A stretch of DNA of 64,000 nt from Pirellulales bacterium (GTDB lineage: Bacteria; Planctomycetota; Planctomycetia; Pirellulales; JAEUIK01): NCBI GenBank assembly GCA_019745975.1, contig JAIESQ010000030.1, positions 2,513 through 66,512 on the forward strand. Reading direction: 5' to 3'. Below are positions 5,944-34,230 of this stretch, piece by piece (positions within the stretch are counted from its first letter, which is position 1; every line of letters starts with the position of its first letter). A program made the translations under genes and the position numbers. Under the pieces are notes generated by a model, which had not been told where the DNA came from, did no database searches, and saw only the letters and a list, made by a program, of their open reading frames with translations.

Positions 5944-7416
5944 ATGACTCGCGACACGACGGGCCAGGATCACGACGTCCATCCCACGGGATGGACGAAC
6001 CCCATTCCCCCGCGCGCCTACCGCCTGTTGGTTCTGGGCGGCGGCTGTGCCGCGGTGCGAGCGGCGATCGAAGCGGCGCGCCTGACCGGCCCCGTCGCGC
6101 TGGTCGCGGCACGGATCGACGCGGAGCATGGGCTCGACGACGCCACGGCCGCGCGGCTGGATTTCTGGCAATTCGTGCAGTCGGCCGCCGCCGACCTGGC
6201 GCAACCTCCCGTTGGTGCAGCGAGCGCCGCGTTGGCAGTGCGCTTCGCCGAGTGGACCGCCCAGCAGCGCCGCAGCGACCGCCGCGCGGTGCAAGCGCGC
6301 CGCGCCCAACAGCTTGGTGATTTGGGGATCGAAATCCACTTTGGCAGCGCCGTCTTCACCGGGCCCGACACAATCGCTGTCCACGGTCGTGAGTTGAAGT
6401 TCGAGAGGGCGATTGTCGCTCCCGGACCCGCAGTGCCGAGCGACCCAATTCCTGCCGCGGTAGGCGCCGACGCCGGCCCGCTGCTGACGGTCGACGACTG
6501 GAATCGGCTAGAATCGCTCCCCAAGCGTCTGGCCGTTCTTGGTGGCGGACCCGGTGCCTTGGAACTGGCCGACGCCTTTGCGCGGCTCGGTTCCGAAGTG
6601 CATCTGATTAGCGCTCCCGGCGAGTTTATGTCCGGCGAAGAGCCGGGAGCCGTGGATTGCCTGGCACGGGGACTCCAGCGACAGGGCGTGCGCATCCATC
6701 GCGATTGCGCGCTGCGCGACGTCGAGCAACTGGCCAACGCGCGGCTGGTGACGATCGAACACCGCCACGAGTTGCGAAAACTCCTGGCCGATGAATTGCT
6801 CGTGCTCGGCCAGCAGCGGCAGTGGACCGCTCCCGGTGGCTTGGCTGCCGCCCGCCTGACGCTTCGCGACGCTGGCCTCGTAGTCGACGACCGGCTGCGA
6901 ACCTCCAACGCGCGCATCTATGCCGCGGGAGTCTGTTGCGCCACGCCGCGTCCGTTGGCAGATGCCGAGGCCTATGGCCGCCTCGCCGTGCGCAATGCGC
7001 TGCTTTCCGGCGGAGAACATTACTCGGCGGTCGTCGCGCCGCGCATCGTCAGGGCGTCGCCGCAACTGGTGCAAGTCGGTTGCACCACGCTCGAAGCGCG
7101 CGAGCTGGGGATGGAACTCGACACTTATCGCTGCGCGCTGCCAGGGCACTTCGAACACTTCGCCCTCATTCACACCCGGCATGGCACGGGGCGGCTGCTC
7201 GGCGCCACGCTCGTCGCGCCCGACGCCGCCGCACTGGCCCCCTTGCTCACGCTGCTGGTCAAGGAGCAGCTCTCGCTCGAGACGCTCGCCGAGCTCACGA
7301 CCGGGCACCTGGCCGGATTCGAGGCGCTGCGCTCGATCGCCCAGCAATACGCACGCCGTGGCTCACTGGCTGCCGATCGACCTAGCGCGTCGACCGAGCT
7401 GGCCGCACGCGTGTAA
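5944..7416 (+). CDS. Pyridine nucleotide-disulfide oxidoreductase family protein (degenerate, mercuric-reductase-like)
   Basis: HPTGWTNP..YRLLVLGGG N-terminus, LAVLGGGPGALELA NAD(P) motif, LRTSNARIYAAG; redox CxxxxC missing. Confidence 0.7.
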   Translation: MTRDTTGQDHDVHPTGWTNPIPPRAYRLLVLGGGCAAVRAAIEAARLTGPVALVAARIDAEHGLDDATAARLDFWQFVQSAAADLAQPPVGAASAALAVRFAEWTAQQRRSDRRAVQARRAQQLGDLGIEIHFGSAVFTGPDTIAVHGRELKFERAIVAPGPAVPSDPIPAAVGADAGPLLTVDDWNRLESLPKRLAVLGGGPGALELADAFARLGSEVHLISAPGEFMSGEEPGAVDCLARGLQRQGVRIHRDCALRDVEQLANARLVTIEHRHELRKLLADELLVLGQQRQWTAPGGLAAARLTLRDAGLVVDDRLRTSNARIYAAGVCCATPRPLADAEAYGRLAVRNALLSGGEHYSAVVAPRIVRASPQLVQVGCTTLEARELGMELDTYRCALPGHFEHFALIHTRHGTGRLLGATLVAPDAAALAPLLTLLVKEQLSLETLAELTTGHLAGFEALRSIAQQYARRGSLAADRPSASTELAARV

Positions 7417-7557
7417 TCTCGCCTTGAGCGAACTGGCTGGCATCGCATCCTCTGGGTTAGGCGCCTTCGCGGGATTCCGCCCTGACGATGATGCGATCCC
7501 CGCGGTAGCGTAGAATTGAGGAACCATCGATCGCCTGACCCCTGGCAACCTGAAACC

Positions 7558-12684: not shown

Positions 12685-15546
12685 ATGCCTGCACGCGCTG
12701 GAATCTTGGCCACGCTCGTCGCCCTGACGGTGTTTGGCGGTGTCGTCCATGGCCAGGAGAACAAGGACAAGGGCCCTTCGTTCACGGAGCGGTTCGATCG
12801 TTTCCGGAGAAATCTGTTCGGAGGTGGCGCGGAGCAGCGGAGCGCGGCTCCCGCGCAGCGTTCGCGCAACCCGAATCAGGGGAGTGAGCGGATCACTGGC
12901 GTGCCCGAATGGCCAGGGCAGAGCACGTCGTCGCGCGGTGGTCCGGCGCGGGGCAGCGGATCGCGAATGACCCAACAGCCGCGAACAGGAGCGCCGCGGC
13001 CCGACGCCGCGCGCAACGCGCGCATGCCGAGCGACGAGGGAGCCCTCGGTTCGACTGGCATGCCTAGCCCGTCCGCGTCGCCAAACACTTCGAGCCGCCG
13101 CACGGCGCAACCGGGCTACGAACGACAAGCTCTGCCACCGAATGCGACGCCGATCGCTGCTGGCCCGCGACCCGAAGACATCGCGCCTCGCCAACCCGCT
13201 CCCACCGCTGCGCCGACGGAGGTGTTGGCGGATCGCCCACCTGTGCGTGACGACGAAGCGCCGCGCATGGCCGAACGCAGCCAACCCCCTGCTGCCGAGC
13301 CGCTGTCGGCCGAGCCATTGGCTGTCGCGCCGTCGAGACTCGACGAAATCATGCCCGAACAAACGTTGCCGGAAGCGACGCCGGCCGGGGCGCCGACGCA
13401 TAGTGCCCAGCCAACGCGGCGCGCCAGCACGCTAGGCCAGCGCCTGGCCAGCGCTCGCCGCGCAGGTTCGTCGCGGTTGCTATCGGGCGAGGGAGCCGCG
13501 GCCGAGGGCGCCGAAACGGAATCGAGCACGAGCGACTCCGAATCAGCGGCTCCTACAAATGAGGCTCCGCCCAATAGCGAAGCAATCAAGACCGACTCGC
13601 CAGAGAGCGGTTCGGCCGGCGACGATGCAGTGAGTGCGGAAAACCCGGCCACGGAGGCAGCTCCTGCACACGAGAGCGACGCCCCTGCAACAACGACGCC
13701 ATCCGGCGATCACCAGCGGCACACGCCATCGTCGTCCGCGAGAGCGTCGAGCAACCAAGGGAATCGATCTCGACGCAGTTCAGGCCGGTCGTCGCCCGCG
13801 GTCCAACAGCCGGTGTCGGATTCGAGCGAAGCGTCGGCCGAAAGTTCGTCGGCTTCGAGCGAAGCTGACAGCAGCGACACAACCTCGGCCACCGAATCGT
13901 CGCCGGCGACAACTCCGGAAGTTGACTCGACGGTCACGGGCGAACCCGACGTGCTGGTGACGCGGCAGAGCCCCGTGATCAGCGTCGACACGGTGGGCCC
14001 GCGCAAGATCAAGGTCGGTATGCCGGCCGCGTACCGCATCGTCGTCAAGAACGCCGGTAGTCTGGCTGCCGAAGGCTTGCTCGTTACGGTGCGCGTGCCC
14101 GAAGGCGCCGATCTCGTCGGCACGCAGGCGGGCATTGGCAGCGTGCGGCCGGCCAAGTCGGCGGACCAGGGCGCCGGGGTGGAGTGGGTGATCGATTCGC
14201 TCGGCGCGCGAAGCGAGACCAGTCTGACGCTGCGGCTGGTGCCGCTGCGCAGTCGGCCGATTGAATTGGGAGTCGAATGGTCGCTGTCGCCCGTGGCCGT
14301 CAACACCCTGGTCGAGGTGCAAGAGCCAAAACTGTTGATGAGCCTCGTTGGCCCCGAAGAGGTTTACTACGGCAAGCGCGAGTCGTACAAGCTGACGCTT
14401 ACCAATCCCGGGACCGGCGACGCCGAACATGTCGTCGTCAGCTTGCTGCCGACCACGCCCGGCGAAGACCAGGCGGTGATTCACGAAGTCGGCACGCTCC
14501 GCGCCGGAGGCAGCAAAGTCGTGGAACTCGAGCTTACGGCCCGGCAGCATGGCACGCTGCGTCTGCGAGCTGAAGCCACGGCCGACGGCTCGTTGAGCAC
14601 GGCGGTCGACGAAGAGGTGCTTGTCCGCCGGGCTGAGTTGCGAGTCGAAGTCGACGGGCCGCAACTGCTTTATGCCGGCACGGCTGGGACGTACACGATT
14701 CACGTTAGTAATCCCGGCAACGCCGCGGCGCAGAACGTCAAGCTGACGTCGATGCTGCCGGCCGACGCCAAGTATGTGTCGGGGAGCGATGGCGCGACAC
14801 TGTCGGACGAGGGCAATCGTGTCGCCTGGTCAACCGCCTCGCTGCGACCGGGTGCGGAGTGGATCGTGAGCTTCCGCTGCGAGCTGACGGCGGCCGGCGC
14901 GGCGACCACGCAACTGGTGGCCACGGCCGACGAGGAAGTAGAAAGCGGCACGACCTTCGCCACCGAAGTCGAGGCCCTGGCCGACCTGTCGCTGGAGATC
15001 AAGGACCCGGCCGGCCCCGTGCCCGTCGGTCAGGAAGCGACCTACGAAATTCACATTCACAACCGGGGCACGAAGAGCGCCGCGGGCATTGGCGTCGTGG
15101 CCTTCTTCTCGCGGGGCATCGAACCGATGCAGATCGAGGGGGGCAAGCACCACGTCGGACCCGGACGGATCACATTCGCTCCGCTGCGGTCGATCGGCGC
15201 GGGGCAAGAGATCGTGCTCACGATCAAGGCGCAAGCCAACGAGGCCGGCAACCATTTGTTCCGGGCGGAAGTCGAATGCGAGGAGCTCGAAACGAAGCTC
15301 TCGGCCGAGGAGACAACGCGGTTCTACGGCGATGGTCCGGCGGCGCCGCACGCGTCGCGTCGCAAGCAACCCGTCGAACGGCGCGCGGCGGAGACTGGCG
15401 AGGCGGCCGACCGTGGCGCTCGCGAGCCGGCAGAAGAGTCGGGCAGCTTCTGGCCCGCCGCTGACGGGCAGGCTTCAGCAGGTGCAGCCGATGGCGGCAA
15501 CGCCTCGCCGGCCGATACGCTCGTGCCTGACGAGACGACGCCGTAG
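12685..15546 (+). CDS. Exported DUF11-repeat protein with long Ser/Ala/Pro/Glu-rich disordered N-terminal region
   Basis: Signal peptide MPARAGILATLVALTVFGGVVHG; repeated DUF11-like motifs (YRIVVKNAGSLAA, YKLTLTNPGTGDAE, YTIHVSNPGNAAA, YEIHIHNRGTKSA). Confidence 0.75.
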   Translation: MPARAGILATLVALTVFGGVVHGQENKDKGPSFTERFDRFRRNLFGGGAEQRSAAPAQRSRNPNQGSERITGVPEWPGQSTSSRGGPARGSGSRMTQQPRTGAPRPDAARNARMPSDEGALGSTGMPSPSASPNTSSRRTAQPGYERQALPPNATPIAAGPRPEDIAPRQPAPTAAPTEVLADRPPVRDDEAPRMAERSQPPAAEPLSAEPLAVAPSRLDEIMPEQTLPEATPAGAPTHSAQPTRRASTLGQRLASARRAGSSRLLSGEGAAAEGAETESSTSDSESAAPTNEAPPNSEAIKTDSPESGSAGDDAVSAENPATEAAPAHESDAPATTTPSGDHQRHTPSSSARASSNQGNRSRRSSGRSSPAVQQPVSDSSEASAESSSASSEADSSDTTSATESSPATTPEVDSTVTGEPDVLVTRQSPVISVDTVGPRKIKVGMPAAYRIVVKNAGSLAAEGLLVTVRVPEGADLVGTQAGIGSVRPAKSADQGAGVEWVIDSLGARSETSLTLRLVPLRSRPIELGVEWSLSPVAVNTLVEVQEPKLLMSLVGPEEVYYGKRESYKLTLTNPGTGDAEHVVVSLLPTTPGEDQAVIHEVGTLRAGGSKVVELELTARQHGTLRLRAEATADGSLSTAVDEEVLVRRAELRVEVDGPQLLYAGTAGTYTIHVSNPGNAAAQNVKLTSMLPADAKYVSGSDGATLSDEGNRVAWSTASLRPGAEWIVSFRCELTAAGAATTQLVATADEEVESGTTFATEVEALADLSLEIKDPAGPVPVGQEATYEIHIHNRGTKSAAGIGVVAFFSRGIEPMQIEGGKHHVGPGRITFAPLRSIGAGQEIVLTIKAQANEAGNHLFRAEVECEELETKLSAEETTRFYGDGPAAPHASRRKQPVERRAAETGEAADRGAREPAEESGSFWPAADGQASAGAADGGNASPADTLVPDETTP

Positions 15547-30953: not shown

Positions 30954-31101
30954 CTCCGCTGCCCTCGTAGTAGCGGGCCGCCGCGCGGCGGAAATTGCAT
31001 CAACGACCTCCACATAGAACACTTGCTTCCCGGTTCGCGATCCTATTTCACGCTGCCGGCGTCCGTCATAGAATAGATAAAGTGAGCAGTGGAGCAGCGG
31101 A

Positions 31102-31338
31102 ATGACGCTACAAATCTCTGCGGATGTCGAGCAGTTGATCCGACTTCAGATGGCGACAGGTCATTACCAGTCTGAGGACGATCTGCTACGCGACGCGTTG
31201 CAGGCGCTCGCCGAGCGAGCGGACGATGTCGCGGCGATTCAAGAAGGCCTCGATGACTTGCTGGCTGGCCGAGTTCATCTGCTCGACGAAGTTGACGCCG
31301 AGATTCGACAGCGCTTCGGCTTCACTTCGCGACAATGA
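31102..31338 (+). CDS. ParD-like (ribbon-helix-helix) antitoxin
   Basis: ATGHYQSEDDLLRDALQAL motif; 78 aa; ATGA overlap with downstream toxin. Confidence 0.8.
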   Translation: MTLQISADVEQLIRLQMATGHYQSEDDLLRDALQALAERADDVAAIQEGLDDLLAGRVHLLDEVDAEIRQRFGFTSRQ

Positions 31339-31670
31339 ACCGGCGCGTCGTTTTGTCGGCGCGCGCCAAACGCGAGCTCATCGCCGCGACCGAGTGGTGG
31401 GCGACGCATCGGTCGACCGAACAAGCGGACCGTTGGTACGCCGGCTTTCTCAAGACCCTTGAAGCATTGAGCGATACCGCTCCGCGGTATCCGCTGGCTC
31501 GCGAACGCGCGACGTTCGCTGCGGAATTGCGGCAGCTCAACTACGGTGTTAGCAAGCGGCCGACACACCGTGCCGTATTCGTAGTTCACGACGACGTTGT
31601 CGTCGTGCTTACGATTCGCCACCTTGCGCAACGCGACTTGAGCGGCGAAGAGCTTGCTGAACAGGAGTGA
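31335..31670 (+). CDS. RelE/ParE-family toxin
   Basis: VVLSARAKREL N-terminus and VVVLTIRH C-terminus; paired with upstream antitoxin. Confidence 0.8.
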   Translation: MNRRVVLSARAKRELIAATEWWATHRSTEQADRWYAGFLKTLEALSDTAPRYPLARERATFAAELRQLNYGVSKRPTHRAVFVVHDDVVVVLTIRHLAQRDLSGEELAEQE

Positions 31671-31726
31671 ATCGTTTTCGGGCGGTCGATCGACCTGGTG
31701 GAACAGCCGTCGTGCTCAAGCCATCC

Positions 31727-32098
31727 ATGTTTTCGCGTCACTGGTTTCGCTTTCGACTCAGCACGTGGACCGTGTTGTTGGTGATTCTCAGTGCAACACT
31801 TGGTCTCGAACCGACAATCATCCATACGACGCGGCGAACCCGAATGATCGAACGTTCGGCTGTTGATCTTGCTGCTGAAACCAGCCTCAGCCATTGGTAC
31901 TTGAGTCGTGGTTTTCCTAGTCCCTACTGGCGCTATGATGTCGTCAAGCAACCGAACTCGACGCTGTTCTGGCCTGCGCTGGCGCTCATGTGCTTCGTGA
32001 TAGCAAAGTACGCTTGGGCCGTAGGGATTGAAGCCGAGGGGGTGCTGGCCGAAGACCCCGAATTTGCCACAAGAGATGGCAGGCGGCCCCGCGGTTGA
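31727..32098 (+). CDS. Hypothetical membrane protein
   Basis: WFRFRLSTWTVLLVI planctomycete-like start and a second hydrophobic segment; atypical codon use. Confidence 0.35.
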   Translation: MFSRHWFRFRLSTWTVLLVILSATLGLEPTIIHTTRRTRMIERSAVDLAAETSLSHWYLSRGFPSPYWRYDVVKQPNSTLFWPALALMCFVIAKYAWAVGIEAEGVLAEDPEFATRDGRRPRG

Positions 32099-32123
32099 CA
32101 TCCCCCCGGACCGCACCTAAGCT
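32095..32123 (+). promoter_or_regulatory. sigma70-type promoter of the cimA leader
   Basis: TTGACA-17 bp-TAAGCT. Confidence 0.65.
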
Positions 32124-32170
32124 TGAGAACCGAAGTTTCGCTCGTTGAACCGCTGCCCAAGGCGCCAAAA

Positions 32171-32269
32171 GTGGCCCGAATCGCCGATCACCGAGTCGTC
32201 GCTCACCCCGTCGGGGTTCGGCCGATGATTGCCCGGATCGCGATTATTGGAGACCACCTCCGGCCTTAA
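32171..32269 (+). CDS. Putative Val/Ile-rich attenuator leader peptide of cimA
   Basis: GTG 32171 (or ATG 32225) to TAA 32269: MARIADHRVVAHPVGVRPMIARIAIIGDHLRP; followed by an intrinsic terminator. Confidence 0.7.
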   Translation: MARIADHRVVAHPVGVRPMIARIAIIGDHLRP

Positions 32270-32304
32270 GGCTCGCCGCGGCGAAACACTAGCCAAGCCA
32301 GCAG

Positions 32305-32336
32305 CCCTGAGGCCAAACCGGCCCCAGGGTTTTTTT
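32305..32336 (+). terminator. Intrinsic terminator (attenuator) upstream of cimA
   Basis: CCCTGAGGCC-AAACC-GGCCCCAGGG hairpin followed by a T7 run, 170 nt before the cimA start. Confidence 0.8.
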
Positions 32337-32507
32337 GTTGATGGAATGGTCGTAACTAGAGAACCCTGAACGATCGCACGCGACGACTCAACCGTTAGCC
32401 GCGGGACTCGTCCCGCGCGCTAGCTTGTGTGATATCGCGTCGAGCCCGCTAGCGCGCGGAGTAAACTCCGCGGCTAACCAGAAGGAATTCATCGATTGGG
32501 TGAACCC

Positions 32508-34109
32508 ATGACCCGCATCCAGATTTACGACACCACGCTCCGCGACGGTTGCCAGGGCGAAGGGGTGAACCTCTCGCTGCAAGACAAGCTGTTGATCACC
32601 GAGCGGCTCGACGCGCTGGGCTTCGATTTCGTCGAAGGGGGTTACCCACTCTCGAACGAAAAGGACGCCCAGTTCTTCCAGCGCGTGCGCGAGCTGCCGC
32701 TGAAGCGCACCCAAGTGTGCGCCTTCGGCATGACGCGGCGCAAAGGGGCGACGTGCGACGCCGATCCCGGCATGGCCGCCCTGCTCGATGCGCAGGCCAA
32801 AGTGCTGACGATTGTCGGCAAGACGTCGGACTTTCATGCCACCGAAATCTTGCGCGTCTCGCTCGAAGAAAACCTGGCGATGATCGCCGAGACCGTGCGC
32901 TACCTGCGCAACGCCGGCCGGCGCGTGATTTACGACGCCGAGCACTTCTTCGACGGCTGGAAGTCGAACCCCGACTACGCCCGGAAGACCATCCGCGCGG
33001 CGGCCGCCGCCGGCGCCGAGCTCGTCGTGCTCTGCGACACCAACGGCGGCAGCATGCCCGAGGAAGTTGCCGACCTGGTGCGCGAAGCCGCCCGCTCGGT
33101 CAGCGTGCCGATCGGCATCCATTGCCACAACGATTGCGAGCTGGCCGTGGCCAACTCGCTGGCGGCCGTCGAGGCCGGCGCCGTCCACGTGCAGGGAACC
33201 ATCAACGGACTCGGCGAACGCTGCGGCAACGCCGATCTCGTATCGGTCGTCGCCAATCTGGGGCTCAAGAAGCGCGGTTACGAAGTGCTCGCCGCGGGTG
33301 GCGTCACGCACCTGACCGACCTGTCGCGGTTTGTTTACGAAACGGCGAACTTGCACCTGCGGGCGAACCAGCCGTTCGTCGGCCAGAGCGCGTTTGCCCA
33401 CAAGGGGGGCATGCACGTGCACGCCATCAACCGGGCCACGCAAAGCTACGAGCACATTGCCCCCGAGAGCGTCGGCAACGAGCGGCGCGTGCTGGTGAGC
33501 GAGCTGTCGGGCCGCTCGAACATCGAAGCGCTCGCCAACCGCCACGATCTGCCGCACGATCGCCAGCTCTTGGATCGGGTGCTCGCGCAAGTCGTCGCGC
33601 TCGAGAACCAGGGGTACCAGTTCGAGGCGGCTGAAGCCTCGTTCGATCTCTTGGTCAAGAAATGCGCTGGCTCGTTTGCCGCTCATTTCGAGCGGCTGAG
33701 CTACCGAGTGAACGTCGAGAGCGGGCCCGACGGCTCAGTGACGACCGAGGCGACCGTCAAACTTCGCGTCGGCGACCGGTTGCTGCACGAAGTGGCCGAA
33801 GGAGACGGCCCGGTCAACGCGCTCGACGCGGCGCTACGCAAGGCGCTGGCCGAGCCGTACCCGAACCTCGCCAGCATGCGGCTTGTCGATTACAAGGTGC
33901 GCGTGATCAATTCCGACGCGGGCACTGCGGCCGGAGTGCGCGTAATGATCGAAAGCCAGGACGACGGTGCCTTGTGGGGCACGGTGGGCGTGAGCGAAAA
34001 CGTCATCGAGGCGAGCTGGCTCGCCCTGGTCGACAGTTTCGAGTACAAGCTCTACAGAGACGAAGCGAAAAAGAGCCCCCGCGCGACGGCGGAGCTGGTG
34101 GAGAGCTAA
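32508..34109 (+). CDS. cimA: Citramalate synthase (LeuA/CimA family)
   Basis: [66 protein letters not shown] typical of the bacterial CimA clade. Confidence 0.88.
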
Positions 34110-34117
34110 GGTCGAAA

Positions 34118-34190
34118 GGGGACGGGAGTCGTTTCTGAGCTACGATTCTCGAACTCTCCATGTCGACGAACAGAAACGACTCCCGTCCCC
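34118..34190. repeat. Perfect 20-bp inverted repeat (GGGGAC...GTCCCC family)
   Basis: GGGGACGGGAGTCGTTTCTG (34118-34137) / CAGAAACGACTCCCGTCCCC (34171-34190), 33-nt spacer, between cimA and valS. Confidence 0.85.
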
Positions 34191-34230
34191 GTTTTTGGGC
34201 CGCGCGCATCGACTACCAAGCGAGTACACG

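Follow-up and report, generated by a model that had tools for sequence, protein, structure and literature searches.

The window analyzed here is a 64,000-nt stretch of DNA of a Pirellulales bacterium, which originates from a metagenome-assembled genome recovered from drinking-water metagenomes (DNA runs only). Upstream of the cimA gene of this window, encoding citramalate synthase (the first step of the threonine-independent isoleucine route), a compact element (plus strand, 32095-32336) was distinguished, composed of a promoter, a short leader open reading frame (ORF) and two competing helices. Very probably, this element is a ribosome-mediated leader-peptide transcription attenuator sensing charged tRNA-Ile (Ile, isoleucine), and possibly tRNA-Val (Val, valine), and controlling cimA, probably as a cimA-valS unit together with the valyl-tRNA synthetase gene.

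Organization of the cimA leader

The element and the gene presumed to be regulated by it comprise the following features:

32095-32100, plus strand: -35 hexamer TTGACA, read in the sequence and invariant in the congeners G001 and G002
32118-32123, plus strand: -10 hexamer TAAGCT, placed after a 17-nt spacer and kept in the congeners
32171-32269, plus strand: leader ORF of 32 codons and TAA (GTG start at 32171, TAA at 32267-32269), encoding the peptide MARIADHRVVAHPVGVRPMIARIAIIGDHLRP (32 amino acids)
32195-32218, plus strand: four Val codons (GTC 32195, GTC 32198, GTC 32210 and GTT 32216)
32228-32248, plus strand: putative regulatory Ile codon cluster (ATT 32228, ATC 32237, ATT 32243 and ATT 32246), encoding I-A-R-I-A-I-I
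32262-32272, plus strand: antiterminator 5' strand (region 2), GGCCTTAAGGC, also written GGCCTTAAGG(C), with the leader stop TAA inside it
32273-32303, plus strand: spacer separating the leader stop from the terminator and containing a small GC hairpin, TCGCCGCGGCGA
32304-32314, plus strand: terminator 5' arm (region 3), (G)CCCTGAGGCC, in which CCCTGAGGCC occupies 32305-32314
32320-32336, plus strand: terminator 3' arm (region 4), GGCCCCAGGG (32320-32329), followed by U7 (32330-32336)
32508-34109, plus strand: cimA, citramalate synthase of 533 amino acids (TIGR00977, 667 bits with the cut-off at 450; Pfam domains HMGL-like and LeuA_dimer)

Transcription of the unit, which spans ~205 nt from promoter to terminator, would start near 32130, ~7 nt past the -10 box. 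The leader peptide contains 5 Ile and 4 Val residues. The Ile cluster lies 6-13 codons ahead of the stop, with the fifth Ile codon (32180) located outside it, and the Val codons are possible secondary sensing codons. Region 2 is complementary to region 3 (10 pairs and one A.C mismatch), and the latter is common to the antiterminator and terminator helices. The terminator hairpin (32305-32329) has an AAACC loop and one A.C mismatch in its stem. A generic consensus promoter/terminator scanner listed neither the promoter nor the terminator of the cimA leader, because the -10 hexamer matches TATAAT at 3 of 6 positions only and the stem has the internal mismatch.

Both hexamers are identical in the two congeners, and the spacer between them has diverged. 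The position of the leader start codon is occupied by ATG in G001 and by GTG in G002, with the reading frame open in both. The C-terminus of the peptide, I-[AV]-I-I-G-D-H-[LF]-R-P-stop, is kept in the congeners, as is the terminator hairpin.

Conservation of cimA leaders within the order

The order was sampled with 121 genomes, 112 of which contain cimA, and 100 cimA upstream regions were examined. A hairpin followed by a T-run was found ahead of cimA in 74 of them. For 54 of these 74, the segment that best complements the terminator 5' arm lies 23-35 nt ahead of the hairpin and has a stop codon in its middle. The leader frame was fixed solely by this stop codon embedded in the antiterminator, without reference to Ile. 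In the frame defined in this way, Ile accounts for 22.8% of the 15 final codons of the 54 leaders, compared with 1.0 and 1.7% in the other two frames, while the share of Val is 10.9%, compared with 2.5 and 2.1%. Two or more Ile codons occur in 50 of these leaders, and the 15 final codons contain 3.4 Ile on average. The leaders have a consensus C-terminus, I-I-x-E-x-R-P-stop, and N-terminal parts that vary freely in length and sequence.

A promoter (TTGACA with at most one mismatch, N16-18 and TAnnnT) was detected in 48 of 50 cimA leaders, compared with 2.4% of shuffled sequences; it is placed 64-237 nt upstream of the leader stop (at least 110 nt in all but one case). The last Ile codon lies 5-8 codons ahead of the stop in 49 of 50 leaders, the distance from stop to hairpin is 30-42 nt across 50 homologous leaders, and the median distance between the starts of the T-run and of cimA is 65 nt. 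At least 19 of the 28 surveyed families of the order have the full design in front of cimA. The Ile codons of the leaders are predominantly ATT (138, vs. 46 ATC), whereas coding DNA shows the opposite preference (70 ATC vs. 16 ATT in the adjacent cimA genes, and 96 vs. 25 in four long genes of the window).

Apart from these features, a conserved GGAG-like motif (nGGAGnn; columns 22-28 of alignment A3) is present 8-12 nt before the leader stop. It supplies the glutamate codon of I-I-x-E-x-R-P-stop and resembles a Shine-Dalgarno sequence.

Folding and covariation of the competing helices

The 216-nt leader is more stable than its shuffled versions (z = -2.8). Covariation was assessed in an alignment of 51 leaders, which are related sequences, with slid controls and 500 shuffles. 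In the antiterminator helix, 87.5% of the cells are paired (22-47% in slid controls) and 6 of 8 pairs have changed on both sides; in the terminator helix, 90% of the cells are paired (26-56% in slid controls) and 7 of 10 pairs have changed on both sides. For either helix, none of the 500 shuffles reached the observed number of paired cells, both-sided changes or covariation score. Since the leaders are related, these shuffle counts are not probabilities; still, the slid controls and the occurrence of several pair types agree with them. For instance, the base directly ahead of the leader stop and base 6 of the arm change together (U-A 22, G-C 8, U-G 4 and A-U 2). Moreover, the mean energy of the duplex between region 2 and the arm is -21.0 kcal/mol for cognate and -18.6 kcal/mol for non-cognate partners, and 0 of 5000 permutations gave a value as low.

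No other parts of the element are as well conserved as the terminator and the antiterminator helix that competes with it. When 32250-32336 of the window is folded locally, the antiterminator has the lowest energy (-31.5 kcal/mol), while the terminator hairpin alone has -18.4 kcal/mol.

Related leaders in this genome and in the phylum

A genome-wide scan revealed many ordinary terminators, of which those with residue-biased upstream ORFs (uORFs) were taken further. Sister leaders of the same genome include (i) a leucine (Leu) leader, MLRLVLLLGLRLLGLTVAGP-stop (contig C197, plus strand, ~6700-6820), placed ~290 nt upstream of leuA (NF002086, 650.7 bits) and sharing the stop-in-antiterminator design and the terminator, and (ii) an aromatic leader, MQSTFVTRYWFWFTPSGHGAGGGL-stop, with a terminator (contig C100, minus strand, 7352-7468), placed ~50 nt upstream of a gene for a DAHP synthase with an N-terminal regulatory domain (NF006421, 466.9 bits).

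A covariance model (R1) was built from the cimA leaders, with the window included in the seed alignment (68.1 bits). Outside the seed, it scored the leuA leader at 29.9 bits and the DAHP synthase leader at 18.8 bits, and within the phylum it matched 81 of 301 genomes at E <= 1e-3. Approximately 22 of the top 29 R1 loci precede genes for leuA, cimA, DAHP synthase, ilvB, ileS or chorismate mutase. The design of the family consists of a stop codon in a GGCCUUAGGG-like strand, a 30-42-nt spacer and a terminator, (G)CCCUGAGGCC...GGCCnCAGGG(C), with a U-run, placed ahead of a gene for amino-acid biosynthesis or for an aminoacyl-tRNA synthetase, and the window fits it.

Across the phylum, the codon runs match the downstream genes: Leu with leuA, phenylalanine, tyrosine and tryptophan (Phe/Tyr/Trp) with DAHP synthase, Ile with cimA, and FFFF with chorismate mutase. 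Within the phylum but in other families, an ileS leader (locus L157, G261:C31:144053-144142) contains IAIII in the peptide MHKTTDSIAIIITSPKNR-stop, and a leader of the acetolactate synthase gene ilvB (locus L145, G377:C4:6252-6359) encodes the Ile/Leu/Val-rich MKKQLALVLVVALALIIIGGVQY-stop. The strongest argument for the ribosome as the sensor is that one RNA scaffold carries differing codon runs which match the downstream pathway.

One further site of this genome was noted on contig C180 (plus strand, near 13960), where a G+C-rich sequence, ...TGTCGCG, followed by T7, lies directly upstream of a gene for a pyridoxal phosphate enzyme of cysteine/methionine metabolism. It may be a candidate riboswitch or another attenuator.

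Neighbouring genes and inserted repeats

Between the terminator and valS, the following further features were found:

32393-32481, strand not assigned: palindromic repeat of ~88 nt between the terminator and cimA, GTTAGCCGCGG...CCGCGGCTAAC, inserted and lying outside the ancestral attenuator
34119-34196, plus strand: second inserted multicopy repeat, a hairpin with T5, having 20-bp perfect arms (34119-34138/34171-34190) and ending at the valS start codon
34195-37302, plus strand: valS, valyl-tRNA synthetase with a TTG start (NF004349, 1052.7 bits; TIGR00422, 911.7 bits)

The ~88-nt repeat has ~28 matches in this genome and ~40 in that of G001, and it is absent from this site in G002. The gap between terminator and cimA is 171 nt in the window and in G001, where the repeat is inserted, and ~30 nt (to the cimA ATG) in G002. 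Therefore the ancestral order is promoter, leader, terminator and cimA, without room for a further promoter.

Genes cimA and valS are same-strand neighbours in 65 of the 83 genomes of the order in which both were located, and the cimA-valS distance measure is 888-1201 nt in 56 of the 65 adjacent pairs (1055 nt in this genome). In view of this adjacency, valS is probably co-transcribed with cimA and thus probably governed by the same switch, which fits the mild Val enrichment of the leaders. The 85-nt spacer between both genes holds the second repeat (arm GGGGACGGGAGTCGTTTCTG and its reverse complement; -49.1 kcal/mol, z = -5.4), whose arms recur, with differing loops, on more than 30 contigs of this genome. 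This repeat may reduce the read-through that reaches valS.

A short way ahead of the attenuator promoter lies an ORF of the ParE toxin family (31335-31670; Pfam PF05016, E = 5.6e-7). It is preceded by an overlapping ORF of 78 amino acids (31102-31338), and the two may constitute a type II toxin-antitoxin pair. The assignment of the leader hairpin as the terminator of another upstream ORF (31667-32098) was rejected, as the conserved promoter intervenes and the element travels with cimA in other genomes.

Proposed mechanism

An earlier note on this DNA had proposed a ribosome-mediated attenuator controlling cimA, and this proposal is supported by the frame-specific Ile bias, the compensatory changes in the two helices and the exchange of codon runs among sister leaders. 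The parts it had named hold up in comparison: (i) the TTGACA-17-TAAGCT promoter recurs in the homologous leaders, (ii) the leader ORF from GTG32171 to TAA32269 is kept open in both congeners, and (iii) the hairpin with T7 and (iv) the pairing of the stop-overlapping segment with the terminator 5' arm both show compensatory changes. The note had also suggested comparing cimA upstream regions, in which the Ile-rich uORF and the hairpin proved to be conserved. Its identification of cimA agrees with the TIGR00977 match, and valS does lie directly downstream, here as in most genomes of the order. As regards the proposed sensing of both Ile and Val, Ile is clearly the main sensed residue, whereas the enrichment of Val is only mild.

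In the mechanism that we propose from these data, RNA polymerase would start near 32130 and a ribosome would translate the 32-codon leader. If Ile-tRNA is ample, the ribosome would reach the TAA codon (32267) and its footprint would mask region 2 (32262-32272), so that region 3 (32304-32314) could pair with region 4 (32320-32329), leading to termination at U7 (32330-32336). If Ile-tRNA is scarce, the ribosome would stall on the ATT/ATC cluster (32228-32248), leaving region 2 free to pair with region 3 as the antiterminator, and transcription would continue into cimA and on towards valS. The geometry suits such coupling, in that the antiterminator strand has the stop codon at its centre in 54 loci and the last Ile codon lies 5-8 codons upstream of it in 49 of 50 leaders. 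We infer from this geometry that the position of the ribosome would be coupled to the choice of helix, with footprint sizes taken from general knowledge.

As a hypothesis, the conserved R-P-stop ending might delay release of the peptide, so that the ribosome would stay on region 2. A similar proline-stop (Pro-stop) ending is present in TnaC (...DHRP-stop), as compared with ...E-x-R-P-stop of the cimA family. In these data, selection on the Pro-stop at the peptide level is inseparable from that on RNA pairing, because CGG-CCN-UAR-GGG is at the same time a strand of the helix.

A wider reading, which we put forward as a tentative and rather doubtful one, is that of a phylum-wide paralogous family of three-element attenuators, devoid of an anti-antiterminator and with read-through as the default state, which would have been re-targeted by swapping the codon run. 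It would include Pro-stop parking of the ribosome on the stop within the antiterminator and, owing to the Val codons and to the cimA-valS linkage, the reporting of Val-tRNA charging to valS. Its supposed targets would be cimA-valS and ileS (Ile), leuA (Leu), DAHP synthase and chorismate mutase (Phe/Tyr/Trp), and ilvB (Ile/Leu/Val).

Points against the attenuator and alternative explanations

Several observations weigh against attenuation of cimA by its leader. By a simple detector, 26 of the 100 cimA upstream regions lack a terminator (in 4 of these 26 the cimA start was not locatable). In the window, the 88-nt repeat now parts the terminator from cimA, and the hairpin with T5 parts cimA from valS. 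The leader start codon is preceded only by a weak Shine-Dalgarno-like AAGG. In addition, in the minimum-energy fold of the whole leader, region 2 is paired with the ribosome-binding site region, and therefore the structure of the untranslated state is uncertain. Contigs from RNA runs on the leader of a relative (G074) are short, of low depth and too fragmentary to define a 3' end. In ilvB and leuA leaders of Streptomyces, which look similar, mutations of the candidate regulatory codons defied the predictions of classical attenuation (PMC1262725), and therefore the architecture alone is no proof.

A conserved region 1 (an anti-antiterminator, capable of 1:2 pairing) was found neither by folding each leader nor by duplex z-scores, which is a further point of this kind. 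The best upstream complement of region 2 is no stronger than those of shuffles (mean z of -0.53; below -2 in 6 of 50 leaders) and has a variable position, and in minimum-energy folds region 2 mostly pairs with variable, distant 5' segments. We therefore do not assign the cimA leader to the four-segment scheme of the trp type. Since a conserved region 1 was not found, the naked, untranslated leader RNA probably defaults to read-through, and termination would need translation of the leader.

Three other explanations were weighed. The helices could be real and the ORF incidental, with the RNA acting as a switch that binds a ligand, tRNA or protein (a riboswitch, a T-box-like element or protein-dependent antitermination). 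Terminator/antiterminator alternatives are equally compatible with a riboswitch-type mechanism, the spacer between stop and hairpin is constrained in length and bears a small hairpin, and the Streptomyces leaders show that candidate peptides may accompany departures from the classical scheme. However, a cmscan of 31000-33000 against Rfam (E <= 10) detected no T-box, riboswitch or amino-acid leader family, the only matches being two unrelated sub-threshold ones elsewhere in the stretch, and the sequence upstream of the Ile cluster is not conserved. Furthermore, the Ile codons are enriched ~13- to 23-fold solely in the frame of the embedded stop, and Leu, Phe/Tyr/Trp or Ile runs on the same scaffold track the pathway, which a ligand pocket does not predict. 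We consider such a switch very unlikely.

The completeness of the stretch from promoter to terminator, and the inserted repeat that keeps the terminator 171 nt away from cimA here and in G001, would also suit an independent small unit not regulating cimA, i.e., a small RNA or a gene for a small hydrophobic peptide with its own promoter and a constitutive terminator. Two reports on Sinorhizobium indicate trans-acting functions of leader peptides and of attenuator RNAs after their release (PMC6614838, PMC7298713). That explanation is highly improbable in view of the linkage to cimA in at least 19 families at a short median distance, the gap of 30 nt in G002, which leaves no space for a second promoter, and the conserved covarying antiterminator, which is senseless for a constitutive terminator; besides, in the peptide the Ile run and the RNA-constrained C-terminus alone are conserved. 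As the least probable of the three, the uORF might act mainly on translation or Rho-dependent polarity (through re-initiation or mRNA stability) and not via the intrinsic terminator. In Planctomycetes, structural genes often have short uORFs nearby, for which a role in enhancing translation through re-initiation was proposed (PMC4833913), and the fragmentary RNA contigs mentioned above do not show where the transcript ends. On the other hand, the uORF stop is placed 30-42 nt ahead of a canonical GC-rich hairpin with U6-8, conservation within the element is highest in this terminator and its competing helix, and in the window the stop is ~240 nt from the cimA start, which is too far for re-initiation.

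Leader-peptide attenuation of cimA, our preferred explanation, is mechanistically ordinary, and the attenuator itself is real and conserved. The mechanism is a textbook one, so the gain lies in breadth and annotation and not in a new principle. If true, it means that in Planctomycetota, whose gene regulation is poorly known, the synthesis of branched-chain and aromatic amino acids is under classical attenuation with the ribosome as sensor, and that citramalate synthase is the point at which isoleucine controls its own synthesis, with valS tied to the same switch. Annotators gain a recognizable RNA and uORF motif in the form of model R1, and the natural scaffolds, differing mainly in the codon run, are useful for studying changes of attenuator specificity.

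Comparison with known attenuators

The best known leader attenuators are those of enterobacteria, including ilvL of ilvGMEDA, ivbL of ilvBN and the trp, leu, thr, his and pheA leaders. In Rfam, some of these are represented by Phe_leader (RF01859), Leu_leader (RF00512), Thr_leader (RF00506), His_leader (RF00514) and Trp_leader (RF00513). As proposed for the cimA leader, a run of end-product codons in a short ORF is combined with alternative terminator and antiterminator helices, the first enzyme of the pathway is regulated, and the antiterminator strand is masked by a ribosome that has reached the stop. The cimA leader of Planctomycetota differs in showing no sequence or covariance-model similarity to these leaders and in its target, which is cimA and not ilvG or ilvB. 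Moreover, its antiterminator strand has the stop codon midway, a search for a conserved 1:2 pairing found none, and the minor codon ATT is used for Ile.

Vitreschak et al. (2008) reportedly found that in Deltaproteobacteria, Geobacter among them, a leuA-like (citramalate synthase) gene is preceded by a T-box specific for Ile. In both systems low charging of tRNA-Ile would relieve a terminator located before a citramalate synthase gene. The T-box, however, reads the uncharged tRNA directly, whereas in the cimA leader, which has no T-box match, a translating ribosome would read the Ile codons.

An aminoacyl-tRNA synthetase gene behind a leader-peptide attenuator is known from pheST of Escherichia coli. 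That attenuator is also mentioned in a comparative study of leader peptides (PMC1262725). The likeness concerns valS, placed here behind cimA, and ileS, placed behind the IAIII leader of another planctomycete. The systems differ in that valS is the second gene, following the biosynthetic cimA, and in that the leader is mainly Ile-rich with a mild share of Val.

Full-text literature searches retrieved no account of an attenuator of cimA, nor of attenuation by leader peptides in Planctomycetes or Rhodopirellula, in line with the earlier note, whose author knew of none for planctomycete cimA. Among published comparative studies, the nearest one deals with Proteobacteria and Actinobacteria (PMC1262725). 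In that work, Seliverstov et al. (2005) used comparative genomics to predict leader-peptide attenuators outside Proteobacteria, those of trp, trpS and leuS being classical in Actinobacteria (PMC1262725). The actinobacterial ilvB, trp, trpS and leuS leaders resemble the planctomycete ones in having predicted leader peptides, Ile/Val/Leu-rich ones among them, and in including attenuated aminoacyl-tRNA synthetase genes; they differ in belonging to another phylum and sequence family, and cimA is not among their targets (PMC1262725). In actinobacterial ilvB, the ORF overlaps the terminator and there is no evident antiterminator (PMC1262725), whereas the cimA leader has an antiterminator whose strands covary.

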